A stretch of DNA of 64,000 bases from a virus. The stretch is taken from the IMG/VR virus record IMGVR_UViG_3300019757_000003, positions 50,271-114,270 of that record; one strand, 5' to 3'. Position 1 is the first letter of the stretch, and each line of letters begins with the position of its first letter. Position numbers and translations under genes: made by a program. The notes below the pieces were generated by a model. That model did not search any database. It saw only the letters and a program-made list of their open reading frames with translations, and was not told the DNA's origin. Below are positions 318 to 46,507 of the stretch, piece after piece.

Positions 318-418
318 CTAGCTAATGTCGGAAGCACAGAGTACTGAAGAGTACAGACTGGTAAGTCCGATTCTTACGATTGAGGAAGGAAGGAATGGTT
401 CGAGTCCATTCAGCTAGA
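318..418 (+). ncRNA. tRNA-like element with two T-loop hairpins (not a canonical tRNA)
   Basis: CTAGCTA(318-324)/CAGCTAG(411-417) acceptor-like stem; T-arm AATGG-TTCGAGT-CCATT; internal GTAAG-TCCGATT-CTTAC; intergenic. Confidence 0.5.
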
Positions 419-2210: not shown

Positions 2211-2236
2211 AGAGTGGTTCTTAGAAAGACTACAAA

Positions 2237-2256
2237 ACCTAGATTAATTTCTAGGT
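2237..2256. terminator. intergenic hairpin with TTAATT loop
   Basis: ACCTAGA-TTAATT-TCTAGGT after the ligase stop; no clear U-tract on +. Confidence 0.4.
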
Positions 2257-2277
2257 AAACTAAATAAAAGGATAAAG

Positions 2278-2634
2278 ATGATTAGTAAAGATTTAATGGA
2301 GGAAGTGTTAGGTATTAAACTTGAAGAAGACTATATACCAAAGCTATCCGAGTACTCACCTAATTTTTTAGAGGAGTATTGGATAGAGTCAGAGCGAATA
2401 TGGCAAGATATGATGTCAGTTTACGAATTGTCTCATTTATGTAAAATTTGGACTAAAGATAATTCAGACCTAGAGATTGTGAGTAAATTAGGAGAAGCTT
2501 GGTTCTTAAATACAAAAGATACCGATGAACCTATGTATGAACTATTTAAAGCTGACCCTGAGTATGCGTCTGTATTTCAAGCAACTCAATGGATTTATGA
2601 AAGAATTAAGGGGACTAATGGGATTAACAGATGA
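2278..2634 (+). CDS. hypothetical protein
   Basis: ORF with AAGGA SD. Confidence 0.6.
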   Translation: MISKDLMEEVLGIKLEEDYIPKLSEYSPNFLEEYWIESERIWQDMMSVYELSHLCKIWTKDNSDLEIVSKLGEAWFLNTKDTDEPMYELFKADPEYASVFQATQWIYERIKGTNGINR

Positions 2635-14001: not shown

Positions 14002-14904
14002 ATGGAAAATATGTTTCAAAACACAAGCGTAGAGAAGATCAAAGAGAACATTACAGTACAAGGTGCAGCAGGATTTTACAAACCAGGGATTCATAAAATT
14101 GTAGATACAGAAATCTTTATATTCGATACAGAATTTAACGGTAACACATACACAAATGCAGTTATTGAATTCATACGAGAGGATGGTGCAAAACTACAAC
14201 AAGAACTGAAGACAAAAACAAAGTCCAATCAATCTGAAGGTGAAACTGACCTAAGTAACTTTATGGGTAAGATTGCAATGGGAACTGGTAGAGAAGCTGA
14301 GTATGATGGTTTAGGTGCTACATTTATGGAACTACCTCTTACACCATATACAACTATGTATAAAAAAGAAGTGCAAGCTAAAGTTATTAGAATATTCTCA
14401 AATGCTAAATACTCAATTGTAACTACTACAAGTATTAGGGCTTCAAATGAATCATTGTACACTTCACAAATTCTTGATGAAAGATTTGTATTCAGAGCAG
14501 AAGATAATGCTTCATCTGGAGAAATTAAAGATGGAGATGAAGAAAAGTTCGGAAAAAGCTTTGAGTATTGGTCTGATGAAGACAATGTCAAAGACAAAAT
14601 AAGTATTGCTTATGTTAAAAGTAACTATGACAACTGGGATGGAGACTACTCTGATAGAACAGTAAAAGATTGTGTAACACAAGCTGTAGAGTACTTTAAA
14701 GATGGTGGAAATCTGTCAGAACCTTTACCTAATCAAGATGGTGTAGATAAAGCTGACTTAGAGAGAGTAGGTACATTATTTATTGATGGTCTAAGTGCAG
14801 CAGATGTTAAGCAAAGAATGTCTGACCTTAAAGGTGTAGAGACTGCAACTACTTCTATTGATGATGAAGAGCATTCTGATTCAGACGAACCAGACTTCAG
14901 TTAA
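14002..14904 (+). CDS. putative single-stranded DNA-binding protein
   Basis: Acidic tail (DDEEHSDSDEPDFS); lies in the replication module next to an AAA_24 ATPase. Confidence 0.5.
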   Translation: MENMFQNTSVEKIKENITVQGAAGFYKPGIHKIVDTEIFIFDTEFNGNTYTNAVIEFIREDGAKLQQELKTKTKSNQSEGETDLSNFMGKIAMGTGREAEYDGLGATFMELPLTPYTTMYKKEVQAKVIRIFSNAKYSIVTTTSIRASNESLYTSQILDERFVFRAEDNASSGEIKDGDEEKFGKSFEYWSDEDNVKDKISIAYVKSNYDNWDGDYSDRTVKDCVTQAVEYFKDGGNLSEPLPNQDGVDKADLERVGTLFIDGLSAADVKQRMSDLKGVETATTSIDDEEHSDSDEPDFS

Positions 14905-16406: not shown

Positions 16407-17480
16407 TTGATAGAGGTTAGTAAGAAAAAGCTCTTCTCTCCAGATGCAGATAACAAGATTAAGATGTTTAGTGGGGACACTGACAACTTAATTGATATGA
16501 TTGACCAAGACTTACCAGATTTTTATCAAAGATACTCTGAGAAGATGTTTGCTAATAATTGGCATCCACATAAGTACCCAGTGTCAGAAGATATGGCAGA
16601 CTTTAAGAATCTGTCATCTATAGAGAGAGAGACTTTAGACAAAGCACTATCACACTTATCAGGACTAGATAGCTATCAAGTAAATAATCTACCTGAGATA
16701 GCTAGTAGAATTAGATACCCAGAAGTAGTAGGTGTACTATCTACGCATACAGCAGAAGAAAGTTTACACTCATATTCTTATGCGTATATATTTAATACTC
16801 TGTATTCAAAAGATGAAGCTAGAACAGTAAGAGATTTACTGAAGACAGACCCAATTATGAGAAATAGGGCTATAGATATTACAGATAGTTATGAGAATAG
16901 CTCAAAAGATGATTCACTACATACTATGTTACAAGTACTTCTTACTAACCTAACACTTGAAGGGATTATGTTCTACAACATATTTAACTTCTTCTTTTAC
17001 TTAAAGTACCAAGGTAAGATGACTAACACAGCAGTAGTTATAAGTTGGATCAAGAAACAAGAACTAGTCCATGTACAAATCTTTTTAGAACTTTTACTGA
17101 GATTTAAAGAAGACTACCCAGAAGAGTGGGATGAATCCTTTATAGCAGATTTTATTGAAACTCAAGTTAAACTAGAAGTGGTATATAGTACATATATTAT
17201 AGACCCTAGAATACCAGGATTTTCTAAAGAAAACATCGAGAAGTATACTAAATCAAGAGCTAATACTCTACTTAGGTTATTAAAGATAGACCATAAGATT
17301 CCAGATGCTTCCAACCCTTACACTCACTTAGAGAAAGTAAGTAATGTAGGTACAGAAGAGAATCCTGATGTAGGTTCTACAGAAACAGCTATATTTGAAA
17401 CTCATAACACAAACTACTTCAACCCATATGTAAAAATACAAGATTTCAAGGAGTTTGCAAATGCTAGTAACAAAAAATAG
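16407..17480 (+). CDS. nrdB: ribonucleotide reductase class Ia beta subunit
   Basis: LDSYQ, EESLHSYSY (radical Tyr), LEGIMFY, ELVH. Confidence 0.92.
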   Translation: MIEVSKKKLFSPDADNKIKMFSGDTDNLIDMIDQDLPDFYQRYSEKMFANNWHPHKYPVSEDMADFKNLSSIERETLDKALSHLSGLDSYQVNNLPEIASRIRYPEVVGVLSTHTAEESLHSYSYAYIFNTLYSKDEARTVRDLLKTDPIMRNRAIDITDSYENSSKDDSLHTMLQVLLTNLTLEGIMFYNIFNFFFYLKYQGKMTNTAVVISWIKKQELVHVQIFLELLLRFKEDYPEEWDESFIADFIETQVKLEVVYSTYIIDPRIPGFSKENIEKYTKSRANTLLRLLKIDHKIPDASNPYTHLEKVSNVGTEENPDVGSTETAIFETHNTNYFNPYVKIQDFKEFANASNKK

Positions 17481-26463: not shown

Positions 26464-27218
26464 AAGTAGAGTTAATAGATATACCTACAGAGATTACACA
26501 CGATAGTGTATTAGCTTATTTAGCTAGTTGTAGTAGTGTTGTTAGGGATGCCCAACCTAAGAATAATGAGAGGTTGTTTAAAAGACTACAAAAAGAGTCT
26601 TTTGGAGATAAGCCCAGTAGGGTATTTGAGTATGTACCTTGTAAGATTTCTAGTGGTGTGATACAATATAGTGCCATGCAGTTATTTGGTTTTTACACAG
26701 AAGAACAGACAGATAATACTTCCGTTTTTGAACGAGCCTATTATACAAATGCTAGAGAGTTGCTAAATTGGGGCTGGACTTGGGAAGAGGTATTAAAAGT
26801 AGTAGACTTTACTAACTATAAAGCTGTTAAAGTTACTGCACCTTACTTCCTATATGGTCAAATGAGCACACATAACCAAATAACTAGTGTTAGCCATAGT
26901 AATAGATATACGCAGTCTAAACTAGGTTATTGGTGTCCAATACCTAACCATCCAAATTGGGACTATACTGTAAGGGAGACAACACCAAATAGTCTTGAAC
27001 GTATTATGAAAGCAGCAGGTATTGTTCGTAGAGAAGTGTTTGCAAGAGGTTCTGATATGTTAGAGTATAGAGTCAGTACCCTAGGTGGATATACCAATAA
27101 TCCAAATGCTTGGGAGCACTTTATCAACCAAAGACTTAATGACAGTCATACACAACTAGAAATGAGAGAACTAGCTTCTCTTATAAAAGAGAAACTTGAA
27201 GGAGTTAGTAATAATTAA
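26460..27218 (+). CDS. thyX: divergent FAD-dependent thymidylate synthase
   Basis: SRVFE, APYFLYGQMSTHNQITSVSHSNRY, RREVFAR, WEHFINQRL..HTQLEMRELA. Confidence 0.7.
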   Translation: MKVELIDIPTEITHDSVLAYLASCSSVVRDAQPKNNERLFKRLQKESFGDKPSRVFEYVPCKISSGVIQYSAMQLFGFYTEEQTDNTSVFERAYYTNARELLNWGWTWEEVLKVVDFTNYKAVKVTAPYFLYGQMSTHNQITSVSHSNRYTQSKLGYWCPIPNHPNWDYTVRETTPNSLERIMKAAGIVRREVFARGSDMLEYRVSTLGGYTNNPNAWEHFINQRLNDSHTQLEMRELASLIKEKLEGVSNN

Positions 27219-27507
27219 TGAGAAACTAGAAGAACTAGAGTATGCTTATAGAATAGAACCTAATGAAGAGTATGCTAAAGCATTGAAAGATAAGATAGAC
27301 GATATTAAAGAGTCTATGAGAGATACTAAACTAGATGAACTAAGACAAGATATAGCAGATGATGAGTCTATGTCAGTAGATACGTCTGAACTAGTTACAG
27401 CATTTGTAGAGAAAAAGGTAGAGTTCTTAGAGACTTTAGATAAAGAAGATTTAGAGGAGTATTTATATTCTACTGGATCTGAATTAAATATAGAGGATTA
27501 CAAATGA
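27196..27507 (+). CDS. hypothetical acidic protein
   Basis: ORF between thyX and mazG. Confidence 0.5.
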   Translation: MKELVIINEKLEELEYAYRIEPNEEYAKALKDKIDDIKESMRDTKLDELRQDIADDESMSVDTSELVTAFVEKKVEFLETLDKEDLEEYLYSTGSELNIEDYK

Positions 27508-27875
27508 ATTTTATACAAGAGAGTATGAGAACAGAGTCAAGCCAATTTAATGATTTAACTAATAACGGAGTTACTTATAGTAAAGAGAGGCTTTTGCATG
27601 CTTGTTTAGGTATGCAAACGGAGTCAGCAGAGTTTAGTGATGCAATTAAAAAATCATTGTTTTATGGTATAGAATTGGATGTTATTAATTTAAAAGAAGA
27701 GCTAGGAGATATGTTATGGTATATTGCTATTGCTATGGACGAACTAGGTACTGATTTTACTACAGAGCAAATTAGAGTAGTTAATAAATTAAAGGTAAGA
27801 TTCCCTACTAAGTTCACTAATATAGATGCAGAAAATAGAGACTTAGAGTCTGAGCGTCAAGTATTAGAACAATAA
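27504..27875 (+). CDS. MazG-like nucleotide pyrophosphohydrolase
   Basis: LGMQTESAEF..KK...EELGDMLWY...KLKVRFP. Confidence 0.88.
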   Translation: MNFIQESMRTESSQFNDLTNNGVTYSKERLLHACLGMQTESAEFSDAIKKSLFYGIELDVINLKEELGDMLWYIAIAMDELGTDFTTEQIRVVNKLKVRFPTKFTNIDAENRDLESERQVLEQ

Positions 27876-27950
27876 AACAAACAAATAGGTTTAACTTTAA
27901 GAGCAACTAAAAGTTATAAAGAATGACACAAAATAAAAGAAGGAGTACCA

Positions 27951-28238
27951 ATGAAGTACTATTTAGTAAATGAAACAGAAGAAGGATTAGCACTTATTAA
28001 GTCAGATAGTGGAGTATATAACTTACCATGGACTACAGTAAAACCTAACAATATAGTAGATGGAGAGTTTACATTAGAAGGCAGATTTATCGCAGAAGAA
28101 GGAACTATTGTAGAGGTAGAGGAACTACCAGAGTTTACTCCACACCAAAGAATTAACTATAATAAGTTCTGTGCAAGTGAAGAGTATACTCTAACTTGTG
28201 CTCTACTATTGAGATTTGCTGGTAATTTCTTAAGGTAA
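27951..28238 (+). CDS. hypothetical protein
   Basis: AAGGAG SD. Confidence 0.6.
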   Translation: MKYYLVNETEEGLALIKSDSGVYNLPWTTVKPNNIVDGEFTLEGRFIAEEGTIVEVEELPEFTPHQRINYNKFCASEEYTLTCALLLRFAGNFLR

Positions 28239-28243
28239 TAACA

Positions 28244-28273
28244 TAAGTATATTTAAGGTAACTTAGATAGAAT
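28244..28273 (+). promoter_or_regulatory. sigma70-type promoter driving the non-coding region
   Basis: TAAGTATATTTAAG-N5-TTAGATAGAAT, similar to 23227-23258. Confidence 0.5.
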
Positions 28274-28279
28274 AAAACT

Positions 28280-28960
28280 ACGCATTCCCTCATGTAAATC
28301 AAAGTATCGTACTTCGGTGTTGATATGTAAGTCGTAAGAATAACTACCCAATAAGCCAAGTGGAATGAAGGTTTGAACCTAAGCGAATATCAAATATACC
28401 TTAGATACTTTATTGACAGAGTAACGTCTGTAAACCTTATAAAAGACACCTACAATATTTGATGTAGAGTTACGGAAGTCTGGTAGACTGAACGGGATAC
28501 CTAAGTAAGTAAACACTTCACAAGGTGTATAAACTATGTCAGTACTCATAGCCAGAGTCAGCTTAAGTGGTGAGTAGTAACAGGTTTAACTCCTGTAGTT
28601 GGTAAGTTCTTATGAAATACTTGCTCCACGAAGCTTACGTGGCTACTCTATAACTAGGTATTGGTTAAGAGAAGGTTTGAATCCTTCTATACAATTTGTA
28701 TCCATGATGGCTAGTAATATGAATGATAGGTGGTTCAATTCCATCAACCTAGTTACAAACAGTCGAGATCTCACATCAATTTATAATTGTTAAACGACTT
28801 TAACTTTTGAGAGGTTTACCGACCTTAAGGTATACTCAAGTAGCTACGAGGACTTTACATTCAGTATGATTAATAGTCTTAGATGTAATTAAACGACAAG
28901 CCTCTACCACAACGTGCTGAAGCCAATTCAGAATATATGATTGTGGTTACGCTGTTTTAT
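28280..28960 (+). ncRNA. candidate large structured ncRNA
   Basis: ~700-nt gap with no credible gene; many hairpins, three T-loop arms and 7-9 bp long-range complements. Confidence 0.65.
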
Positions 28961-28986
28961 ATAATATAAATTAAAAGGATGAATAA

Positions 28987-29609
28987 ATGGTAAAGATACA
29001 TATAGATGACTATAGAGAGTTATTAGAGAATAAGATAGAAGAACTTACTACGAAAATAAAAGAAGTAGAAGATCTATCTGATGAGCAGAAACTAAGTATA
29101 ATGGAAGAAGACACACCTTTAAGGTACTATCAAGCACAAATTATCAATGGCGAAGACACTAGTAAATTAGATTATTTCTATGATACACGAATAATGGCTG
29201 AATACTCAGAAAACCGAACTCTGCTAAAAGAGTGTAAGATTATTCTACCTCTAATACCAAACTTAAAGAAAGTACTAATAGATGGTGTTTATGAGATTAA
29301 AGTAGATAAACTAGTGGAGTTACAATGTCAACCAAAGGAAAATAAATGTTATCAGTAAGTTTAGCACACAAAGAGATAAAAGAAACTAAAGAGGTTTTAG
29401 CCTGTATTAAGGAAGCAAAGTACTATAATGGAAATGTAGACTTCTACATCAAACCGAGAGGTGTGGGTATGGATACAGATTTACTAGACCTGACTTCTGA
29501 AGAAAGTAAGAAAATACTTAAATTCATTGAGAGGATGCTTAAAGCCAAACTAAAAGAACAAAAAGTTGAGAGTGCCAGACTTAATAAAGTAAGAAAGAGG
29601 TACGAGTAA
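28987..29609 (+). other. two hypothetical CDS (28987-29358, 29346-29609)
   Basis: AAGGA SD sites. Confidence 0.6.
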
Positions 29610-29659
29610 CAGTAGAACAGAGTAAATAAAAAGAATTTAGCTAAATTTGCTCTAAAAGC

Positions 29660-29688
29660 TTGACAAAAAGGCTAAATTTGGATATACT
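29660..29688 (+). promoter_or_regulatory. consensus sigma70 promoter
   Basis: TTGACA-17 nt-TATACT. Confidence 0.85.
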
Positions 29689-29745
29689 TTACACGTAGTA
29701 TCGAGTACTCGCATATAGTGTGAAGTATTCACAACGTCTAAGAAT

Positions 29746-29829
29746 ATAACTAAGTGCAGTTTTTGTCGAGACTTCTGCACTTAGTTATGAGCTTAGTACT
29801 TCTAGTATCAGGTTAAAAAGTCTCGACAA
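29746..29829 (+). ncRNA. C4-antisense-like hairpin whose loop is complementary to the downstream leader
   Basis: 14-bp perfect stem 29746-59/29775-88; loop TTGTCGAGACTT complements AAGTCTCGACAA at 29818-29. Confidence 0.65.
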
Positions 29830-29873
29830 CTTCCTTAATCTCTCATAAAAACAATAAGTCGGAAAGTTAGTTT

Positions 29874-30461
29874 ATGACAAAAGAACACAAGTTTGTCGAT
29901 TTAAAAGCACTTATAAAAGAACATAGTCACATAATAAATGGAGGAGTTGAAACTTTTAACTGGATTAAATTTCTTTGTGAAGTTGAAGACATACCTAGTA
30001 AGTTGGTAAAATCTAAACGAGGAAAATTCACCCTACTATATGATGCTGAAAAGACAATTGACTTAATACAAAGAGCATGTATCAGATACGAAATAAAGCC
30101 ATTAAGAAAACACTCGGTAAAAGAGTTCTATTTTGTTTATATACTTAAAATACAAGAACTTAAAGACACCTACAAAATAGGTATTTCACACGATGTGAAG
30201 CACAGATTGGAAGAAATCAATAAATGTTCCTTAGAAGTTAATTTACAGCACACTTACGAACTAGTAGAGAATATGAAGTTTTCTCTAAAGAGTCAAGCCT
30301 CAAAAGTAGAAAGAGAGATTAAATATCTTCTAAAAGACTACAAATCAACAAATATAACACTACATAAAACAGAAGTATTTACTATACCTTTACAAGATCT
30401 ACAAAAGATCCTATTTGTATTTGGTAAATACATGACAAAAAGTGGAACTAATGTTAAGTAA
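29874..30461 (+). CDS. T5orf172/GIY-YIG domain protein
   Basis: FVYILK..YKIGIS..HRL...VEREIK...KTEVF. Confidence 0.8.
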   Translation: MTKEHKFVDLKALIKEHSHIINGGVETFNWIKFLCEVEDIPSKLVKSKRGKFTLLYDAEKTIDLIQRACIRYEIKPLRKHSVKEFYFVYILKIQELKDTYKIGISHDVKHRLEEINKCSLEVNLQHTYELVENMKFSLKSQASKVEREIKYLLKDYKSTNITLHKTEVFTIPLQDLQKILFVFGKYMTKSGTNVK

Positions 30462-35558: not shown

Positions 35559-38513
35559 CTAACCAAACACCTGCCAAGGAGCAACCATATTAGGATTCCA
35601 AGGATCAAATTGAGTACTATCTCTCATACCTATTAGAGAATTACCTATATGAGCATTACCATAGTTAGTAAGTTCATTCATACCAACATAAGTAGCTCCA
35701 CCAGTAACAGCTTTAGTATAAGCTAATGACCATAACATCTTCTGTATTCTAAGAAGGAAATGTGGAAACATAAACAAACCTAGAGACTTCCATTGTTCAA
35801 TTTGTTCAGGTAAAGCATCTCTATAATCAATAAATGAACCATGAACAATCTCAGTAGCAATATCACTCATTTCTTGGGGACTTAAATTAGGTTTAGATTG
35901 CGACATTTGGTCTATTAAATGTTTATAGAGAGTCCACTTACCAATCAAATCCACCATAGTAGTAACAGCACCACCATACCTAACTAGCTCAGATTGACCA
36001 GGAGAAGCTAAGATTTCACTAATCAATTTTTGATGTTGTTTAGTATCTTTAATAGCATTAAACTTCTGGCTAAGTCTGGTAAGTTCAGATTTGAGAGTAC
36101 CATTACTAGTTACTTTAGAATCAGCATAAGTAAGTATAGAAGCTAGAGACAGTCCAGTATTGGACATAGAATCCATTATTTTTACAACTGAAGGATAATC
36201 ATCGACTTTACTAAGGAATCCATCTAAACGTCTCTGAAGACCTTCATTAGCTTCTCTATCTCCAATTAACATTTGAGTAGATAAAGTTTGATTGAAACCG
36301 TTATCCTCAGCTACTTTAAATGGGTGTACTTCAATAGTAGCGTCTACTTCATCTAGCTGAGACTTTAGAGTCTTATAAGTAGAGTCAGCTTCATCAGTAC
36401 CTTTCACCATCATACTTAACATAATTTGTTTCTGTCTTAATTGGCTAAACTCCTTATGATACCTGACAGCTTCTTTACCATACTTAGCTGCACTAGTAAG
36501 AGGTACTTGATGAATAGCTAGAATACTACCAGTAGATATAGCATCCATCATAATTTTGGTAGGATTTACTATAGCCCAATGAACAGCTTCCATAGTAACT
36601 AAATCTCGGAGTAGTTGTTCTACTTTATGAGCATATCTATTCTTATTATTAAATAGAGGTTTATTAGAATAGCCAAGCATCTGAGTCTTTAAGTCTCTGT
36701 GAACCATAGTAGCATACCTAGGTAGCTCAAGAACACTAGTAGCATTACCAAAGTTCTTATCTTTAAGAGTTCTGCCTTTATTAGTAGTAGACATATAATG
36801 TTTCTTAATCAAAGGGTAGTCTTTAATATCTAACAATGAATCAGCACTAAAGTCAAAGTTAAGGAACATAGGACTAATACCCTTTGCTAAACCTTTCTCA
36901 ACCTTATCTGCTTCAGTAGGCAAATAGACCTTAGTGGTTTGATTATCTATAATGTGTTTAATTGTAGACATAGTTTGTAGTATCTCTTCATTATGAGCAT
37001 AAGACCTATGTAATACACTAGGAGTTTCATTATCTACTTCCATCTTATCCAACATCTTCTGAGTCAATCTGAGAACGTACCGAGGTACTTTGTCATAATG
37101 TCTCACTTCGACATTGTTGGACTTCAAATCAAACTTATACTCTAAATACTGTTCATGAGATAAATGGATACCATCATCAGGAATAGTAGTATTAGATATG
37201 ATACCAGCAGTCTGACCAAAATCAGTTCTCTCTCTAATAGCTACACCAATTTGACCTTTACTATACTCTTTGATAATAGTCCATTTGTCTTCAGGTTTAA
37301 GCTTATCCACATCAGCTTGAGATAGTAAAGGTATCTTATCATAGTTCTTTTTAAAGTGTACACTTCTACCTGTTTTATTATCTAACTTATACATAGACTT
37401 ACCTCTTAAATCTACATCAATTTGACTTCCTACAGCAGAAGTAGCTTGAGATAACATAAGAAATTCATTATAAGAACCTTTAGATTTACTATCTTTCTTA
37501 AATTTAGATAAAGTATCTAATTGTTCCTTACCACCTAATTTTAATTGATGTAAAGCTACTATCTTCATAAAGTCTTGTAAATACTTACCACCAAGGTTAC
37601 TATAAACAAATCGTTCATTAACACCAGTGTCCACAATATCTGCCAAGTCTCTAGTATGGTAAAACTTAGCTAAATCTTCAGCAGACTTACCTATACCTAC
37701 CTCTATCATCTTAGTATTGGCTATACCAGATTGACTTACAAGCTCTTTAATCTGCTCATCTATAGCAGACATAGGGTCAGAACTACTTAAGGCTTTATCT
37801 AGATTCTCTTGGTCTATTAAATGAATATGTGAAAAATTGAATAAAGAAGAAATATGGTCTAGTTGTTTCTTAGTGTAGTCTTTAGTAACTTCTCTGAATA
37901 GTCGTTTAGACTTAGTGAGCATCTCTATATCTATTTCATTCCTAGCCCTAGAAGCTTTAGTTTTATCTGACAGATAAGTGCTAATTTGTTTATAGTCAAT
38001 ACCAGTCTTGAGCTTCATATATATCAAGAGTTCATTAATAAGTTCACTAGGAGTTTCTCTATCTTTAAGAGCATTTACTGCTTTGTGATAGATACCCTCA
38101 GCATTACTCATCTTATTCTTATGGAAGTCTTGAACCCAATTACTATTAACTACACCTAAAGCAGAGTTAGAAATACCTTTACCAACTCCTTTAGTCAAAT
38201 CACTACCTATAATAGCTTTAATAGGAGTAATAATACCTAAAGATATAGCTGACCTAGTAAGACTATTAGCTGTCTCAAATATACCATTAACAGGAGCTAT
38301 ATACGGAGGTTTTTGACCTTTGTACATAACATGAGATAGAGACCTATCTAAATCTGTTTTAGGTTTATTAGCCTCAGCTAGTACCTCATCATATAGTAGA
38401 TTTACTTGTTTAGTGACCTCAGAAGAAGATAACTTAGGATTATCCTTCTTTAGTTGTTTACTCATTATTTCTAGCAGTTTAACCTTATCTACATCTTTTA
38501 TACTACAGCTCAT
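35559..38513 (-). CDS. 984-aa virion protein resembling the C-terminal part of N4-type vRNAP
   Basis: C-terminal SFIDY...LGLFMFPHFLLRIQK resembles the N4 gp50 C-terminus as recalled; TAATG-coupled; single Cys at residue 3. Confidence 0.65.
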   Translation of the reverse strand: MSCSIKDVDKVKLLEIMSKQLKKDNPKLSSSEVTKQVNLLYDEVLAEANKPKTDLDRSLSHVMYKGQKPPYIAPVNGIFETANSLTRSAISLGIITPIKAIIGSDLTKGVGKGISNSALGVVNSNWVQDFHKNKMSNAEGIYHKAVNALKDRETPSELINELLIYMKLKTGIDYKQISTYLSDKTKASRARNEIDIEMLTKSKRLFREVTKDYTKKQLDHISSLFNFSHIHLIDQENLDKALSSSDPMSAIDEQIKELVSQSGIANTKMIEVGIGKSAEDLAKFYHTRDLADIVDTGVNERFVYSNLGGKYLQDFMKIVALHQLKLGGKEQLDTLSKFKKDSKSKGSYNEFLMLSQATSAVGSQIDVDLRGKSMYKLDNKTGRSVHFKKNYDKIPLLSQADVDKLKPEDKWTIIKEYSKGQIGVAIRERTDFGQTAGIISNTTIPDDGIHLSHEQYLEYKFDLKSNNVEVRHYDKVPRYVLRLTQKMLDKMEVDNETPSVLHRSYAHNEEILQTMSTIKHIIDNQTTKVYLPTEADKVEKGLAKGISPMFLNFDFSADSLLDIKDYPLIKKHYMSTTNKGRTLKDKNFGNATSVLELPRYATMVHRDLKTQMLGYSNKPLFNNKNRYAHKVEQLLRDLVTMEAVHWAIVNPTKIMMDAISTGSILAIHQVPLTSAAKYGKEAVRYHKEFSQLRQKQIMLSMMVKGTDEADSTYKTLKSQLDEVDATIEVHPFKVAEDNGFNQTLSTQMLIGDREANEGLQRRLDGFLSKVDDYPSVVKIMDSMSNTGLSLASILTYADSKVTSNGTLKSELTRLSQKFNAIKDTKQHQKLISEILASPGQSELVRYGGAVTTMVDLIGKWTLYKHLIDQMSQSKPNLSPQEMSDIATEIVHGSFIDYRDALPEQIEQWKSLGLFMFPHFLLRIQKMLWSLAYTKAVTGGATYVGMNELTNYGNAHIGNSLIGMRDSTQFDPWNPNMVAPWQVFG

Positions 38514-41500
38514 TACTCGCATCCTTCTTGTACATTTTTAATAGTAGTATACAATATTTCTTTAGTGTTCTTGGTTTGTATAGTACCTAAAGACTCTTGT
38601 TCTTGTTGGTTATCAGGTTTAGGCTTACCACCTTCTTTACTAGATTCAAATATAATATTCTCAAGAGACCTATTAAATACTTCAACAGTAATATTAGACA
38701 ACTCTTTACCTGTAATAGCTTTATAAGCACTACTAAGAATATCTTTGATAGACTTCATAAGATGTTTAACCATTCTATCAGAGAAGATACCAAGACTAGA
38801 CTCAGTTTCTTGAGTAGTTGCATTATTACTTAGATAATCCCTAAACTCTTGGTTACTCCTATATATAGCTACAAACTCAGACATAGCAGCAACTCTTTTG
38901 GAGTCATCTTCACCATTACCAAGTTCTCGATGTATGTACTCAAATCTATCATGCAAAGACTGACCTAGTATATCCCCATCTGCTGTAGTTCCTTTAGTAT
39001 CGTCTAATATGTCAGGTAATTTATTCTTAAACTTAACAAAAACACTAGATAGTACTTTAAAAGCATTACTTTGCTTAGTAGACTCCATAAAAAATTGGTT
39101 TCTAATATACTCAGCTGTAACACTATGTTGTACCTCATGGTCAATATACTTTAAGAAACTCTTAGTATCTGAAAAGGTAATATCATTGCCTACAAATATC
39201 TGCTCATCATTAGGATTAAACTTAAAAGCTTTTCCAGAGACTAAACTGTTATCTGAATTTAAAGCACTCTTAATGTTCTCAATGTAAACCTTAGTCTCTT
39301 CATCAGTATCCTCAATACTATTAAGAAAATCAGTACCCTCACTAACTTTTAGAGCTTTATCTTTCGACTTTAGAGCTTGTTGAAAATCATATATAAATGA
39401 ATTCGTATCCTTTTTAACAACCTCACCAAAGTTATTAACAATACTAGATAATTGGGCTATACTAGTAGTGTCTTTGTCAGCAAATCTCTCAGCCATAGTA
39501 TCTTGAGACACTTCTGTAGGCTTATTAGGATTGTACTTACCATCTGTGTTAGTTATCTTATTATACTCATGAAAACCTTGAGATACATCAATTACTTTAA
39601 AGTCTTGTTTACTGTACTCCTCAGAAGTGTTCTTAAGAACTAAGTCAATATTATTAGCTAAATCATAGCCTACAAGAGGTACATTAGTAACAGTCTCATC
39701 CAAGTCTTTAGCTTCTTTGTTCAGAGAAGTCATAAAATCATCAATAGCTTTAGAAGACTTTACTTGACCTCTAGTCATGCCTTTAAGGACAGTACCATCA
39801 GGACTAGTGTAGTCATACCCTATTTGACCCTTTAGTGACTCAGATGTCTCCAATTCTTTATGAGAAGGGCTACCATCATTATCCCTTTTAAGAGCAAGTT
39901 CATATGTAAACTCATTACTAGGTAATAAGGTTAAAGTCTTATCCTCTCCTACTTGCTTACCATCTTTATAGATAGAAGCTGTTAAACTAGTAATTTCCTT
40001 AGTTTTAAGAGACTTACCTGAGGTAGTAGAACTCATTACAATATAAGGTTCACCACTAGCAACTAAAGACTTTAACTCTTTATAATGTTGAGGAGAATTT
40101 TCGTACTTCTTCTTAGGTACAACAGACTTTATATCAGGAGCAAAAGAAACTACTGCTTTACGTTGTTCCTTTTGAATTCTCTCAAGAGCCTCAGATTTAG
40201 AATCCTTATCTTTACTAGCATCACTCTGTTTACCAAAATCCCGTTTCTTATATACTTTATAATTAGTAGTATCGATAGGTCCACTAGGCATCTCAGACTC
40301 TGAAGGTAATTTACCGAATATAGAGAAATCCTTATTAGCTCTCAACTCTTCAATCTTAGCTTCTTTACTTGCTAATCTCTTATCTTTATTGATAGTAATA
40401 TTTTTAATAGCTTTTTCTAGTTTACCAACCTCACTACTACCTTCGTTAATCTCCTTAACTTGCTCTAAAGTATACTCAAGTTCTATCTCCATTTCACTAA
40501 GTATGTCATAGTATTGGGCAACATCTAAAGTAGCTTCATGATAAAACTCTTTGTACTTTAAAAGAAACTCAGGAGAACCTTTAACAGCATCATGAATAGC
40601 AATAGAACCTAAACCTTTGTATATACCTTTATCTTTAAAGTACTTAAAAGTTCTCTTAAAAGCAATAAGAAGTATAGCACTATCAATAGCATGTAAAGCT
40701 ACAACAGAAGCAGAGTTCTTGTTAACATTAGACATTAACTTAGTAGGTACTACTCCAGCATCTTCAGCTATTTTAGTCATATCTTGTTCAGTAAGCATTA
40801 ACTTCTCTATTGAAAAGTTAGTATCGGGATCAATATCTCCTAGAACTTCTTCAGTAGCTTTTAGGGTTACATCTAAAGGGTTTCTCATAGATATTATATG
40901 ATTTACACCAGAGCTCCTAAGAAATGATCTAGCACTTGTAAGAACCTCATATGCCTTATCTATAGTACCTTGTACAGCATTCAAGTCAGCATTAATGTTT
41001 TTAAGACCATCACTAAAGATAGTACCAAAGTTTGCACCAACTTTGCTAGAAACCATCTTAAATGAAGCATTTGTATCTTTAACATCTTCTAATTTAATAT
41101 CTAAACTCTTAAAAACAGCTTCTGCATTAGCTTTATCAGTACCTGAACCTTTAAGATAAGCTTTCATCAAATCTATACCTATTTCTTTACCAAGACCTGC
41201 AATTAGAGACTTAATCTTTTGACCATAGGAGTTCGTCATAACTGGATACTTAGCAGTGTCCCTAATCTTTCTCTTATGATCAGGGTTGTTTATATCAAAT
41301 TCACCATCACCTTCAACATTAGCAATAAATTTAAGAATAGCTGAAGTGGCTTTATTCTTCTTTTTGATGGTAGTGTCGTTAAGATCAAGAGAGTTACGCT
41401 TATCAATAATGTTCATTACTTCTTTAATAAGAGCTAAATAAGCATCCCCACCACCTAAAGTAAGTTCATCTAGTTTATCAGACAACCTAGTAGGTCTATC

Positions 41501-44500
41501 TTTATCTGATTTACTCTCGCCATCAACTACTTCTGATTTAGCTTTAACACCAATGTAGCCTTGAAAGTTAGCAATTTTATTAACAATACCAGAAGCAGAA
41601 GCATCAAATTCAGGGTTGAAGTTAGTGGTAATCTTTAAATCAGACCACATAATATCTTTATCAGGGTTAGCTTCTTGTTCAGCTTTTACAGCATTACGAA
41701 CATCTATAATACCTTGAATAGCAGTTATAATTTCAGCAACACTATCACCTTTCTGTAGAATTTTCTTTGTATATTCTCCATTATAGACTTCAGAAGACAA
41801 CAAAGATCTAATACCATTGTTAGAGTAGTGAGTAAGAATATCCTCAAGTGCTTTAGATTCCTCAGATGAATTAGACGGAGATAGTATGTCATCTACAGTA
41901 ATCTCAAAATCAGTACTAGATAGAGTGTCAGCTAAGTTAGCTAAAACAACTAAGTTTTCTTCCTTAGTATTAGTAGTATGTCTAGTATTTAGAATAAACC
42001 TAGAGACAATCTTATCTGCTTGGAAGTCTAAAGCAATGTTCTCTAAATGTATTCTATTATTCCTAGCAGAGAAGTACTCAAAGAATTGTCTCCTCTTCTC
42101 GTAAGGTTCAAGAGAGTCATTATTTTCAAGCTCTCTAATGTAGTCTAAAATACTATCAGCATTACCTTGTCTACTAACTAGTTGACCTATCTCTTCCTCT
42201 CTAGTAATTTCAAGACCACTCTTCTCTATATTAAGTCCGAAGAAATTCTTTATCCATATATCTTTCTCACTATTACCTAAAGAAGATGTAGTCCTACCTC
42301 TTAGAGTTTCAACAATATCAGTAAGAAGACCATAGAATTCATTGTCTATCTCTAATGGTTCACTACGTATATCCTTAATAATAGAACTCTGTTCTGAGCT
42401 GTTCTCATTACCATCACTTCTAACAGGACCTTTAGGTTTTGTGGTTGAAGGAGTTTTAGAACTGGATGGATTCAATGCAGCTAAAATTGGTCTAAATGGA
42501 GTATCAAATTTACTTTTATAGAACACAGAAGCTTCAAAAGATCTATCATTCTTATCTACATCTTGGAACTCTTCTTTTAAAAGAATGACATCATCTTTAC
42601 CAAGAGACATATCAGGAGTTACTTTAACTTGTCCAACATCTTTACGTTCAGCTAAAGCATAGTGCGTAATACCAGACCCATCATCAGGATTATACTCAGA
42701 CAAATATCCTAAAGTATTAAGTAATTTTATACCAGTATCACCTATCTTAATGTGGTAAGAAGAAACAGCGTTATCCTTAGTACCTTCCTTAGCCACAACC
42801 TCTTGACCATAACTATGAGTAAAACTACGTCCAATCTCTTTTAAAGTGTCCTGTTTTGTAGCGTAATGAGTGGACATCTCAGCATCTTTATCAGTAGAAT
42901 TTTGGGTTCTATCAATATTTGATCTCATATTCTTAAGAACACCACTAATAGATAAAATAGCTAATCTCATAGCTTTAGGTACAGACAATGGATCTGATTT
43001 AGGGAACATAGGTAACTCACCTTTATCAACTGCTGCTTCTACTCTTGTAGTTAAGTTTCTTATTATCTCTTTATCAGTATCTAACATATTCCAAGACTTC
43101 TCTTGGATATTATGTGCTTTATTGTTTGCAGACTTAGTACTGATAGCACCACGTTCAAGAACATCTTCAAAAGCTTCATCAGTAACAATCTCAGTGACAT
43201 ATTGTTTTACACGTTTTTCAGATTGTTTAATCTTCTTTAAGCCAGACTTATTTCTACTAATCTTCTCGTTAGGATCTCTATCATCTTCAGCTAAGTCTTT
43301 AGTGGTACTCTTCAGCTCCACGTTAGGATCAGGGATATTGTGCATAGCTCCACGTTCAGTAGTAGCACTTTTCAAGTAACTAAGTAGTACATCTCTAGCC
43401 TTAGTAGATATAGAACTATTCTTTATAGAATTGGTTAAAGAGTCTTGACTTATACTATTAGAGTTGAAGTTCTTAATAGCACTATGTAAAGTATTATATT
43501 GGTCAGATTGAGATAACTTACCAAGTTCTGTAACACTTAGAGTCTGACTTCTTAAAAGTTTATCAGTAGAAGCTTTAATGTCTTCTGACTTAGACTCAGT
43601 AACTTTACTAAGAGTTGTATTCTTATACTTATGAGTCTCAAAGTTCTCGAACTTCTCACCTAACTCAACTTCAGTGAGTTTATCAATATCAGCTAACTCA
43701 TTTACAGTAGCCTCAGGTTGCTCTTCAGTGCCTTTATTTTCTTCATTAGAATCAGTTGTTGGTTCAGTAGGTTTAACCTCTTCAGTAGCTTCCTCAGTAG
43801 TATTAGTAGAAGTAGTTTCAGGTTCTACTTCAGGTTCAGTAGTTGTTTTTTCATCTACTCCAAAACCTAAACTTTTAATAGTCTCTAATCTTTTAGAATA
43901 CATCTCCTTAGCTTTATCATTAAGTCTTACACTAGAATCAGTATCGTTTATTATAGATTTCAAACTATCATAAGCTTCTTGGTCAGGTAGTTTAGTATTA
44001 TTTGATAAAATATTGGTTAAAGAAGCTACTCTATCTTTACCTGTCAAGTCTTTAAGTTTAGCAATGTCCTCAGAAATAGGATTTTGAGTGAATACTTTAG
44101 ATTCACCTTTCTCTCTTTTAGCTATAACTTTGTTTAGCATCTCAAGAGTTTTGGTACTAGACTTAGTAGGTTCTTTAGAACTTAGTGCAGTAACAGCTTT
44201 TCTGAGCTTTTCAGTAGAGTATTTTTCTAACTCTTTAGTAACTGCTCTATTATTCAGACCTTGTGAAATTGACTTAAATCCAGGGATTTTAGAAGTCTCA
44301 GTAATGTCTTTAATATTTGTAGTACTTAAATCAACATCAGAATCAGTTTTAATCTTACTTTCTGTACTTGTTTTATCTTTACTTAATTCCCTTTCTTTAA
44401 TAGCTATAGAGTTTTCTTTTCTAGTTTGAATAAGATTCTTCAATTCTTGTGTTTTAGCTTCATCAGGACCTGATTTAAGCTCAGTTCTAATCTCTTGAAT

Positions 44501-46507
44501 ACGATTCATTGCTTCATCATTTAAAGCCTTTAAATCAGCTATTTGGATGTCAGAAGCTTGATTAGAGAACTTTAAGTCGTTATCTGATAACGTTTTATAA
44601 GTTTTGTCATCAATAGCTTGATTAACATCCTTAAATGTACCAGGAGTTTCCACAACAGCTCTCATCTGTGCACCAGCACCAATTCCACCTAGACCACCCA
44701 TTCTAGCTTCTTGTTGCTTATCCTCGTCACTAAGAACATCAGATACAGTCTTACCACCAACACCAACATTAGCACCTAATATCTCACCCCAAGTTTGAAT
44801 GTACTCTTGAACACCCTCAACCCCACCTGCAGCACCAATAGCAGAAGCTTTAGCTACTAATTTACTGATAATAGGTTTTTGTTCAGATTTAGTTAGACTT
44901 TTAAAAGCTTTCTTAAGAGCACCCACTTCTCCAGTAATACCAGTAGCCTTAGAGAATGCCATTTTATCTATTGATAAAAGAACTAATTGAGTAGCATAAA
45001 CACTAGCAACTTCAAACATATCAACATCAGGATCTTCTCCAGCTTTGAGTTTCTCAGCTATCCTATCATCTAGTACATTATTAGTCATAGCACCTACAAC
45101 AGTATGGAAACCAGAATTTTTAGCAAAATGATCTAAGGTTTTAATCAGGGTAACATTATTTTGGTACTTCTCATACTTACTAATCTCTTTAGCTGTCATT
45201 AATTTTCTAGCTCTATTCTCCAATTTAGCTATATGTTGAACTGAAGCACCTGTTTGTCTAGCTTTTTCAGTAGCTTTAAGTAACCTAGAAGCAGCAGTAA
45301 ACTTCCCAGTACCTACAGTCATACCAATCATCATAGGTAAAGACTCAGCCATAGTATTAGGGTCTGTTAAAACTCCAGTAATAGCATCAAAGTAGTTACC
45401 ATTCTTCCAATTGGTTGCAGCATCAGTTAATACTTGAGTAGATTTAGTTCTATCATAACCAACCCATTTATCTATATTCTCTTTTTTCTTAACATCATTT
45501 AGCATAGTGTTATCACCAGGAGTAACAACATCTAATATAAAGTCAGCAGTGTCTACAAGTAAACTAACAGTACCAGAAGCTAATGCACCAACAACACTAT
45601 CAGTCATACCAGCTTTGTATCTAGCCCTAGCTATATTAGTAAGTCTCTCTGAGTATTCTCTATTCTTATCATAGTCTGCTTGGGTCTTACCTTCATCTAC
45701 ACCTAATAAATCCTTATTAAGTAATTCAGTATAACCATCACCAAAGTTTACACCAGAAGCTTTATCCCTAGAAACGTACTTACCATCAGGAGTTTGTACT
45801 CCACCTACATCAAGAGTTCTAGCATCTAAAACACCTTCTGAAGCATTCCAAGTTTTCTCCCATTCTTCAGCACCAGTAAATCTCTTCTCTTCAACTATCT
45901 CATAACCATCTTGTATATCCTGAGCAATACCTTTAAAGTTATATCTATCATTAGCTCCTACCTCAGCAAAACCTGTCTTATATAGGAACTTCTCTGTACC
46001 ATCAGGATTGTAACCGTCAAACTTCTTTAAGGTATAGACAGTACCACCTGCATTAGGGTCATGTTTAGCATTATGATACTGATCTATAAGTTCTTTAGTT
46101 GTAGTATTTCTAGCAGCAATAAAGTCTTTATTGGACATAGAGTATCGTTTACCTTGATTCTCAGCATCAAACTGAGCTCTATCAAGCATTTCCCCTTGAC
46201 CAAAGTCAGCTATATTCTCAGAAGCTTCTAGTAACCAATCAGCTCCTCTACTAACAGCATTAGCAGCTTCTTTAGCTCTAATCATAGCATTACTATCGTG
46301 TATTAAGCTACCATCATTCTCGTACTGTAGTTCACCAGTTCTCATAGCTATCTTACGTTGTAGTTCTCTAGCTCTCTCTTGTTTTAATAAATCTTCCCCA
46401 CTATCCACAGGGAGCAATCCTGTACCATAATTATACAAGGAAGACGAGTCTTGATTGTACATCCTAGGGTCTGCAAAAGAAGCTTGTAATCCATCATATA
46501 ATCCCAT
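38513..46507 (-). CDS. virion-encapsidated single-subunit RNA polymerase (N4 gp50-like)
   Basis: RNNRIH..DFQADK, motif A EFDASASG, motif B RDTAKYPVMTNSYG, LHAID, motif C IHDA; zincin HEVQH...EFVA; one Cys only. Confidence 0.88.
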   Translation of the reverse strand: MGLYDGLQASFADPRMYNQDSSSLYNYGTGLLPVDSGEDLLKQERARELQRKIAMRTGELQYENDGSLIHDSNAMIRAKEAANAVSRGADWLLEASENIADFGQGEMLDRAQFDAENQGKRYSMSNKDFIAARNTTTKELIDQYHNAKHDPNAGGTVYTLKKFDGYNPDGTEKFLYKTGFAEVGANDRYNFKGIAQDIQDGYEIVEEKRFTGAEEWEKTWNASEGVLDARTLDVGGVQTPDGKYVSRDKASGVNFGDGYTELLNKDLLGVDEGKTQADYDKNREYSERLTNIARARYKAGMTDSVVGALASGTVSLLVDTADFILDVVTPGDNTMLNDVKKKENIDKWVGYDRTKSTQVLTDAATNWKNGNYFDAITGVLTDPNTMAESLPMMIGMTVGTGKFTAASRLLKATEKARQTGASVQHIAKLENRARKLMTAKEISKYEKYQNNVTLIKTLDHFAKNSGFHTVVGAMTNNVLDDRIAEKLKAGEDPDVDMFEVASVYATQLVLLSIDKMAFSKATGITGEVGALKKAFKSLTKSEQKPIISKLVAKASAIGAAGGVEGVQEYIQTWGEILGANVGVGGKTVSDVLSDEDKQQEARMGGLGGIGAGAQMRAVVETPGTFKDVNQAIDDKTYKTLSDNDLKFSNQASDIQIADLKALNDEAMNRIQEIRTELKSGPDEAKTQELKNLIQTRKENSIAIKERELSKDKTSTESKIKTDSDVDLSTTNIKDITETSKIPGFKSISQGLNNRAVTKELEKYSTEKLRKAVTALSSKEPTKSSTKTLEMLNKVIAKREKGESKVFTQNPISEDIAKLKDLTGKDRVASLTNILSNNTKLPDQEAYDSLKSIINDTDSSVRLNDKAKEMYSKRLETIKSLGFGVDEKTTTEPEVEPETTSTNTTEEATEEVKPTEPTTDSNEENKGTEEQPEATVNELADIDKLTEVELGEKFENFETHKYKNTTLSKVTESKSEDIKASTDKLLRSQTLSVTELGKLSQSDQYNTLHSAIKNFNSNSISQDSLTNSIKNSSISTKARDVLLSYLKSATTERGAMHNIPDPNVELKSTTKDLAEDDRDPNEKISRNKSGLKKIKQSEKRVKQYVTEIVTDEAFEDVLERGAISTKSANNKAHNIQEKSWNMLDTDKEIIRNLTTRVEAAVDKGELPMFPKSDPLSVPKAMRLAILSISGVLKNMRSNIDRTQNSTDKDAEMSTHYATKQDTLKEIGRSFTHSYGQEVVAKEGTKDNAVSSYHIKIGDTGIKLLNTLGYLSEYNPDDGSGITHYALAERKDVGQVKVTPDMSLGKDDVILLKEEFQDVDKNDRSFEASVFYKSKFDTPFRPILAALNPSSSKTPSTTKPKGPVRSDGNENSSEQSSIIKDIRSEPLEIDNEFYGLLTDIVETLRGRTTSSLGNSEKDIWIKNFFGLNIEKSGLEITREEEIGQLVSRQGNADSILDYIRELENNDSLEPYEKRRQFFEYFSARNNRIHLENIALDFQADKIVSRFILNTRHTTNTKEENLVVLANLADTLSSTDFEITVDDILSPSNSSEESKALEDILTHYSNNGIRSLLSSEVYNGEYTKKILQKGDSVAEIITAIQGIIDVRNAVKAEQEANPDKDIMWSDLKITTNFNPEFDASASGIVNKIANFQGYIGVKAKSEVVDGESKSDKDRPTRLSDKLDELTLGGGDAYLALIKEVMNIIDKRNSLDLNDTTIKKKNKATSAILKFIANVEGDGEFDINNPDHKRKIRDTAKYPVMTNSYGQKIKSLIAGLGKEIGIDLMKAYLKGSGTDKANAEAVFKSLDIKLEDVKDTNASFKMVSSKVGANFGTIFSDGLKNINADLNAVQGTIDKAYEVLTSARSFLRSSGVNHIISMRNPLDVTLKATEEVLGDIDPDTNFSIEKLMLTEQDMTKIAEDAGVVPTKLMSNVNKNSASVVALHAIDSAILLIAFKRTFKYFKDKGIYKGLGSIAIHDAVKGSPEFLLKYKEFYHEATLDVAQYYDILSEMEIELEYTLEQVKEINEGSSEVGKLEKAIKNITINKDKRLASKEAKIEELRANKDFSIFGKLPSESEMPSGPIDTTNYKVYKKRDFGKQSDASKDKDSKSEALERIQKEQRKAVVSFAPDIKSVVPKKKYENSPQHYKELKSLVASGEPYIVMSSTTSGKSLKTKEITSLTASIYKDGKQVGEDKTLTLLPSNEFTYELALKRDNDGSPSHKELETSESLKGQIGYDYTSPDGTVLKGMTRGQVKSSKAIDDFMTSLNKEAKDLDETVTNVPLVGYDLANNIDLVLKNTSEEYSKQDFKVIDVSQGFHEYNKITNTDGKYNPNKPTEVSQDTMAERFADKDTTSIAQLSSIVNNFGEVVKKDTNSFIYDFQQALKSKDKALKVSEGTDFLNSIEDTDEETKVYIENIKSALNSDNSLVSGKAFKFNPNDEQIFVGNDITFSDTKSFLKYIDHEVQHSVTAEYIRNQFFMESTKQSNAFKVLSSVFVKFKNKLPDILDDTKGTTADGDILGQSLHDRFEYIHRELGNGEDDSKRVAAMSEFVAIYRSNQEFRDYLSNNATTQETESSLGIFSDRMVKHLMKSIKDILSSAYKAITGKELSNITVEVFNRSLENIIFESSKEGGKPKPDNQQEQESLGTIQTKNTKEILYTTIKNVQEGCE

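Follow-up and report, generated by a model that had tools for sequence, protein, structure and literature searches.

The largest gene-free gap in the genome of an N4-like phage is, in our view, probably not one large RNA but a mosaic RNA island that came from a phage tRNA gene cluster and still behaves like one. The island contains two to three tRNA-shaped modules, which have intact T-arms and closing stems and no decoding anticodon loop. It also contains a conserved pseudoknot of 52 nt, referred to below as block B, which, judged by its distribution among sequenced contigs, is an autonomous RNA motif that is laterally shuffled among N4-like phages. We are confident of most of the anatomy and classification of the island, and the mechanism of processing and end protection that we propose for it is a tentative one.

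The stretch of DNA that was analysed (the window; 64,000 nt) corresponds to bases 50271-114270 of a 114,270-bp IMG/VR record in which terminal repeats are present. Its gene content is N4-like, with a portal protein of PHROG 1216, a major head protein, a DNA polymerase, a primase, and a ribonucleotide reductase, and two large ORFs lie on the minus strand (38513-46507, encoding 2664 aa, and 35559-38522). The replication block runs rightward and the virion block leftward, in a convergent layout. The gap is located in the rightward block, one small ORF past a MazG-like gene (27504-27875), and the strand switch follows about 5 kb further on. On both sides it is flanked by plus-strand ORFs (27951-28238 and 28987-29358) that each have a good ribosome-binding site. 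The GC content is 0.36-0.375 in the gap versus ~0.31 in the flanks. An earlier reading made from the sequence only had described this as the largest intergenic gap, and in the genome-wide ranking it indeed came first at 748 nt, followed by gaps of 710, 650, and 647 nt, when a 64-aa TTG ORF without ribosome-binding site (28599-28793) is discounted. The sequence strings quoted in that reading were also each found where it had placed them. The features to which we refer are as follows, all of them on the plus strand and in window coordinates.

28239-28986: the whole gene-free gap (RNA island), 748 nt, defined from ORF lists and six-frame translation.
28250-28269: 8-bp hairpin UAUUUAAG-GUAA-CUUAGAUA just past the upstream stop codon, from MFE and centroid folds.
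28301-28411: weak module closed by AAAGUAUC/GAUACUUU, fold z -1.0, for which no homologue was found.
28512-28558: block A, which overlaps the 5' acceptor/D region of weak cloverleaf 1; 77-79% identical by blastn to a 337-nt gap of relative G001.
28528-28605: tRNA-shaped module 1, a weak cloverleaf with an 8-nt 'anticodon' loop, found by ARAGORN at a relaxed threshold only.
28580-28596: T-arm 1, ACAGG-UUUAACU-CCUGU, within module 1, from the T-arm pattern test.
28651-28755: tRNA-shaped module 2, a 105-nt multibranch with a 9-bp acceptor-like closing stem and internal hairpins, fold z -2.1.
28670-28688: T-arm-like hairpin 2, AGAAGG-UUUGAAU-CCUUCU, within module 2, from the T-arm pattern test.
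28729-28745: T-arm 3, GGUGG-UUCAAUU-CCAUC, canonical, within module 2, from the T-arm pattern test.
28761-28812: block B, conserved pseudoknot of 52 nt, from model R1 and covariation in eight distinct sequences.
28813-28826: variable hairpin GGU-UUACCG-ACC, 3' of block B; most homologues have a hairpin here (alignments by eye).
28878-28986: leader of the downstream gene, with a hairpin at 28906-28948 (z -2.5), a T-rich run, the ribosome-binding site AAAGGA, and the ATG at 28987.

The gap had been called non-coding, and this agrees with the stop codons, which are dense in all six frames (~16-26 per frame, with 21-26 in each forward frame) and include all three types. Because the three stop types are common in every frame, no protein or recoded protein is hidden in the gap. 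We thus give almost no credence to a reading in which the gap specifies very small proteins, be it one or several, or is translated by a variant genetic code. It could appeal to the 64-aa TTG ORF and to several ORFs of 30-56 aa, but the 64-aa ORF, besides being without a ribosome-binding site, runs through two T-arms and block B, and the substitutions in block B are compensatory in helices and not codon-periodic. A variant code was rejected, since no single stop reassignment opens any frame.

We then consider what kind of RNA the gap might specify. The sequence-only reading had proposed a single promoter-driven, highly structured RNA of ~680 nt, either GOLLD/ROOL-like or of a new class, in which the T-loops and long-range pairs would be part of one tertiary fold. 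This would fit the largest gap in a packed genome, a GC content slightly above that of the flanks, the presence of many local hairpins and of three T-loops (a motif that is common in large RNAs), and a hairpin signal at the 5' edge. However, folding of the gap as a whole was no better than that of dinucleotide shuffles (MFE z -0.74 for the plus strand and -0.33 for the minus strand), so that the claim of high structure over the full ~680 nt did not hold. The proposed long-range complements turned out to be at chance level: the gap has 34, 10, and 3 inverted repeats of 7, 8, and 9 nt, respectively, compared to 32±7, 8.8±4, and 2.2±1.9 in dinucleotide shuffles, and one of the claimed pairings (AAGTCGT/ACGACTT) clashes with a helix that is backed by covariation. 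What stood of the claimed structure is local, namely the hairpins, a closing stem, and the T-arms, all on the plus strand.

Database searches also failed to place the gap in a known class. A cmscan of the whole window against Rfam 15 gave no hits at the gathering score, and at E<=10 the gap gave only chance matches of the snoRNA and miRNA type. Membership in GOLLD or ROOL, or in the group I intron, RNase P, or tmRNA families, as had been suggested, is therefore not borne out by Rfam 15 at either threshold. Both GOLLD and ROOL are included in Rfam 15. For the 271 nt around block B, with lax filters and E<=10, there was no Rfam match to a group I intron, RNase P RNA, self-cleaving ribozyme, or riboswitch. 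No tRNA was detected in the window by the Rfam tRNA model or by ARAGORN at default settings, and neither was a tmRNA, by Rfam or by ARAGORN -m down to -ps80; tmRNA matches from very lax ARAGORN runs were dismissed as noise. A blastn search of the gap against 50,697 GenBank phages gave no match.

Relatives of the phage provided a further view of the gap. A search of IMG/VR with the portal protein returned 355 relatives, and blastn of the gap against 19 longer records from this group gave two short matches only. The closest relative, G001, has a portal protein that is 80% identical, and its 337-nt gap carries a copy of block A, for which we found no homologue in IMG/VR beyond G001. This gap is without block B, and the syntenic segment of G001 is otherwise rearranged, without the flanking ORFs and without the rest of the island. 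Block A was considered as a sigma-70 promoter and rejected, since the spacing between its -35-like and -10-like elements is 12-15 nt and unequal in the two copies. Block B (28756-28811 in this comparison) is 80% identical in G003, the portals being 51% identical. A third segment, block C (CCTGAATGAT-GG-TTTGAAA-AGCA), is 78% identical between L141, a contig of G007 (oriented positions 1441-1490), and L152 (oriented positions 2508-2558), and is located 15 nt before block B in G007 and 835 nt after it in L152. The core of block C, TGAATGATAGG, also precedes the third T-arm of the window (28721-28731). The blocks that are common to relatives measure 47-86 nt only. Since they are found reordered or alone in different phages, the modules appear to be separate units that are gained, lost, and reordered. 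Neither of two other routes to relatives in IMG/VR led to the island: the small flanking ORFs found none when used as synteny anchors, and the MazG relatives that were found are non-syntenic and without the island. Of note, window positions 27876-30440, which comprise the ORF at 27951-28238, the island, two small ORFs, and the gene at 29874-30461, have no counterpart in G001 (L109); by this comparison, the segment is a hypervariable accessory segment.

Altogether, a single ornate RNA of ~680 nt seems highly unlikely to us, given that no Rfam model matches, that folding and long-range pairing are at the level of shuffles, that relatives carry short separate blocks (block B being found in 200-nt gaps that contain nothing else of the island), that nearly all of the island is missing from G001, and that a large part of the stretch can be broken down into modules of tRNA origin. 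The sequence-only reading had itself listed both folding at the level of shuffles and decay from tRNA genes as telling against its proposal.

An element of the mosaic island with strong covariation is block B. In this motif, helix P1 pairs 28762-65 with 28795-98 (4 bp), the hairpin P2 pairs 28777-81 with 28785-89, and a crossing helix pairs 28769-73 with 28808-12; the latter crosses P1, which makes the structure a pseudoknot. By scanning IMG/VR and JGI metagenomes with patterns, and by using a covariance model (R1), we assembled a set of eight distinct sequences, which come from the window and from the uncultured contigs G003, G007, G020, G021, G040/L152, L132, and L133/L136. These are 80-90% identical to each other, with portal proteins of their phages that are ~50% identical. 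The window copy, which is among the seed sequences of R1, scores 81.4 bits against R1 with all 14 pairs formed, and each genome has one strong R1 match. Over 14 pairs and eight sequences, 95.5% of the cells are paired, and two-sided compensatory changes were seen in 7/14 pairs, with all three helices represented. None of 500 shuffles reached the observed values, and sliding of the helix partners lowered the pairing to 35-45%. One pair of the crossing helix occurs as four different pair types across the eight sequences and is paired in all of them, and RNAalifold, which is blind to knots, independently picked this helix. P1 has one compensatory change (in G007) and one mismatch (in L132), and the knot is therefore less secure than the other two helices. 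The joining strands AGA, CAU, and AAC-UUUGA are almost invariant, which in RNAs usually points to tertiary contacts, a bound partner, or catalysis.

A strict block B pattern found no match in 185,579 prokaryote genomes. With blastn against GenBank phages at E<=10 only chance matches were obtained, from which it would follow that no cultured phage carries block B. We also observed that CTTAGATGTAATTAAACGAC, at window positions 28878-28897, repeats the context of the P1 3' strand (TTAAACGAC) and resembles 28262-28281; this stretch may be a partial duplicate.

We also weighed whether block B might act as DNA, either as a single-stranded hairpin promoter of the N4 type or as a site of replication priming, used by a virion or T7-like phage RNA polymerase. 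The phages that host block B include five N4-like records: G020 and G040, each with a match to PHROG 2206 (virion RNA polymerase), and G003, G007, and the present genome, which were reached through the N4-type portal. Every block B phage with a checkable polymerase encodes a virion RNA polymerase. In addition, the sequence TTAAACGACT resembles the T7 promoter core ACGACT. In five of the eight sequences P2 has a stem of 4-5 bp with a 3-nt loop, and a conserved G is positioned 14 nt from the centre of the P2 loop; the hairpin promoters of N4 and LUZ7 have stems of at least 4-6 bp, loops of 3-4 nt, and a G start 13-15 nt downstream (PMC9163698). However, the loops are 5-6 nt long in the other three members, there is one block B copy per genome whereas promoters recur, and the motif resides in the middle/late rightward block and not at the early end. 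A promoter would also leave unexplained the compensatory changes in the two non-hairpin helices, one of them extending across the putative start. We consider a DNA signal unlikely on these grounds. A role of block B as a general phage promoter was rejected: the genome contains three copies of TTAAACGAC and a single copy of the full motif.

Turning to the tRNA-shaped modules of the mosaic island, we searched for T-arms with a strict pattern (5-bp stem, G-C closing pair, TTYRANY loop). The 114-kb genome contains five such arms, all on the plus strand, and 3/5 lie in the gap; none of 200 dinucleotide shuffles of the gap contained any. The three T-loop arms that had been noticed before (28580-96, 28670-88, and 28729-45) are thus far above chance. 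The T-loop at 28729 is fully canonical (UUCAAUU), and the loops at 28580 and 28670 carry U at position 56, not C56. At a relaxed threshold (-ps80), ARAGORN reported two low-scoring cloverleaves, at 28528-28605 and 28660-28753; shuffles of the gap gave 0.09 cloverleaves each and never two together. An alternative cloverleaf of 77 nt (28572-28648, fold z -1.55) overlaps module 1.

Neither module has a 5-bp anticodon stem with a 7-nt loop. In module 1, the 'anticodon' arm consists of a mismatched 3-bp stem capped by a loop of 8 nt. In module 2, the fold with the 9-bp closing stem (TAACTAGGT/ACCTAGTTA) is without an anticodon arm, and the relaxed ARAGORN fold offers only a mismatched 3-bp stem. 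This closing stem is separated from the T-arm by a 1-nt spacer, an arrangement that differs from the 7+5-bp stack measured by RNase P. The T-arm and 3' strand of module 2 can be aligned with a tRNA-like gene that precedes block B in G020. Finally, an 11-nt repeat (GAAGGTTTGAA) occurs at 28367-28377 and again at 28671-81, and the T-arm half at the former position marks a decayed fourth unit; it is located in the weak module at 28301-28411, together with a cUUCGg hairpin (28312-28317).

A less likely reading is that these modules are inert wreckage of a lost cluster, with function confined to block B and, perhaps, the gene leader. In favour of it, tRNA models recognise none of the modules, decay and duplication are visible in one T-arm, C56 has changed to U in 2/3 T-loops, the island is absent from the closest relative, and L152 shows what an intact cluster at such a locus looks like. 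On the other hand, in a genome of 33% GC, pairing is complete, with one G-U, in all three T-arm stems as well as in the closing stems of 9 and 6 bp, and neutral decay should break stems. It is these intact stems alone that suggest a function for the modules. Moreover, two more non-decoding tRNA look-alikes are kept elsewhere in this genome, and G020 and L132 likewise have tRNAs with aberrant anticodons beside block B.

As to these look-alikes, an odd tRNA is present at genome positions 26675-26745, 23.5 kb before the window, for which ARAGORN gives an undeterminable 2-base anticodon and a shortened anticodon loop; it holds one of the five strict T-arms of the genome, and the reverse complement of TTAAACGACT is found 35 nt downstream of it. 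A tRNA mimic at window positions 318-418 contains the remaining strict T-arm, a perfect one (AATGG-TTCGAGT-CCATT at 394), and just downstream of it is an RNA ligase gene (1089-2210; Pfam RNA_ligase with a PHA02142 OB domain). Together, ligase and mimic point to a module for RNA repair that includes a tRNA-like RNA of its own.

The surroundings of block B in other phages bear on both the origin and the role of the mosaic island. In 6/6 readable contexts, block B was oriented like the flanking genes. It begins 0-8 nt past a tRNA-like 3' end in the window, G020, and L132, and in L132 an encoded ACCA immediately precedes it. The neighbours in G020 and L132 are tRNAs with aberrant anticodons, one having an anticodon arm extended to 9 bp and one an 8-nt anticodon loop along with the encoded ACCA. 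In the N4-like contig L152, block B is found within a 1.9-kb non-coding island on the reverse strand (oriented positions 1342-3300), which comes after a MazG-like pyrophosphohydrolase gene, as in the window, contains seven good tRNAs, and is situated just ahead of the convergent polymerase gene. A further ~1.3 kb of this island is unclassified non-coding sequence, and a degenerate second stretch resembling block B is seen ~110 nt upstream of block B. Block B stands by itself in gaps of ~200 nt with no tRNA nearby in G003 and G007. Taken together, tRNA ancestry of the island is supported by its T-arms, the relaxed cloverleaves, the duplicated T-arm half, and the tRNA or tRNA-like neighbours of block B in L152, G020, and L132.

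In G021 (L129, IMGVR_UViG_3300028549_000316), block B is followed, after ~75 nt, by a tRNA domain that resembles that of tmRNA. This element of 84 nt (3233-3316, minus strand) matches both ends of the Rfam tmRNA model with 26 bits and E 1.5e-7, the cut-off being 47, and forms a tRNA-like domain with G3-U70 and without a message part. An ORF of the same contig (oriented positions 2944-3747) resembles, by eye, the exonuclease portion at the N terminus of a family A DNA polymerase; it stops ~90 nt before block B and has no continuation in the next 3.5 kb, and may thus represent a split polymerase gene.

The genes downstream of block B are unrelated to each other (an RNase H-fold protein, a DUF7275 protein, a phosphoesterase, and an orphan). 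This argues against a gene-specific leader role, and the possibility that block B is the leader of one gene family was rejected.

A promoter motif had been placed ahead of the gap; no sigma-70-like site was found at the gap start, and what is present there is the GUAA-loop hairpin at 28250-28269, which may be the motif that was meant. Its ATTTAAG arm is shared with hairpins at genome positions 14405-14440 and 16821-16855, all with loops of 4-5 nt, and two ATTTAAG hairpins are located ~25 nt upstream of genes at genome 14412 and 16828. N4-like phages use hairpin promoters (PMC9163698), and the ATTTAAG hairpins are candidate phage-specific hairpin promoters, although the evidence for this is suggestive only. 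At the opposite edge, the ACCACAA/TTGTGGT hairpin has a z of -2.5, and the 3' ~100 nt of the gap show weak similarity (E 0.03-0.09) to the leaders of genes at genome 14400 and 16763, the two genes that the ATTTAAG hairpins also precede. Because this part looks like an ordinary gene leader, the RNA portion of the gap is shorter than had been claimed.

With the gap viewed as a mosaic island, the following tentative series of events could be envisaged. The island would be co-transcribed with the flanking plus-strand genes, and host tRNA-processing enzymes would cut the tRNA-like modules, by RNase P and by 3' trailer cleavage of the RNase E/Z type. After such cutting, the downstream RNA would begin with block B, whose knot and invariant unpaired bases might protect this 5' end against nucleases or serve as the binding site of a specific protein. 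A bolder version, which we regard as a long shot, is that block B represents a new class of RNA knot: either a self-cleaving ribozyme that acts at its own 5' edge and sets the 3' end of the preceding tRNA or tRNA-like RNA, or a bacterial counterpart of xrRNAs that caps processed phage transcripts, with the anticodon-less look-alikes being kept as processing handles or decoys.

As a lead, block B can be compared with the loop-to-3'-tail pseudoknots by which the xrRNAs of plant viruses and flaviviruses stall exonucleases, and with the nested double pseudoknots of HDV-like ribozymes. These have a similar topology, in that the strand enclosed by the 5' helix pairs 3' of that helix and a hairpin is inserted. 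Highly conserved joining strands are another common property. In contrast to these RNAs, however, block B matches none of them in sequence or by model, has a P1 of only 4 bp, and lacks a G-U at a putative cleavage site. GOLLD and ROOL share with the gap that they are phage-borne, non-coding, often near tRNA genes, and of comparable length if the gap were one RNA, but the gap has no Rfam model match and no signal of conservation or folding over its whole length, and its modules are shared separately. The tRNA-shaped modules resemble YrlA (Y RNA-like) and the tRNA-like domain of tmRNA in combining an acceptor-like stem with a canonical T-arm and no decoding anticodon, and in this genome another tRNA mimic neighbours a gene for RNA ligase, although the window shows no Rfam match to YrlA or tmRNA.

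A further parallel is offered by the tRNA clusters of phages such as T4, whose species 1 and 2 RNAs are structured non-tRNA RNAs that are encoded between closely spaced tRNA genes and set free by the enzymes of tRNA processing. Likewise, block B is located in or beside tRNA or tRNA-like genes in the window, G020, L132, and L152. The difference is that the window modules are not functional tRNAs, and that block B also occurs without a nearby tRNA, in G003 and G007.

The closest described system is the sRNA hotspot of the N4-like phage LUZ7, where the gap between ORF69 and ORF70 yields sRNA1-3, each <250 nt and one apparently generated by processing (Putzeys et al. 2022, PMC9163698). Like the island, this is a rightward-strand gap near the end of the replication block, ahead of the convergent virion RNA polymerase gene. 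The LUZ7 gap differs in its length (398 nt), in having no reported tRNA-like modules, and in its sequence, as R1 scores at most 3.7 bits across it and there is no sequence similarity; also, expression has been demonstrated for LUZ7, whereas the island is known from sequence alone. N4-like phages are emerging as carriers of small-RNA islands near the end of the replication genes, with LUZ7 as the experimental case. An RNA island in such a phage therefore has precedent, and what is new here is its composition from tRNA-derived parts, together with the block B motif. The island described here links the small-RNA islands of N4-like phages to a tRNA cluster in which tRNA genes have been remodelled into non-decoding look-alikes, and adds to it a compact pseudoknot that is under strong constraint and is passed between phages of only distant relationship. 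With a size of 52 nt, invariant unpaired bases, and a clear covariation model, block B makes the function of such islands experimentally approachable.
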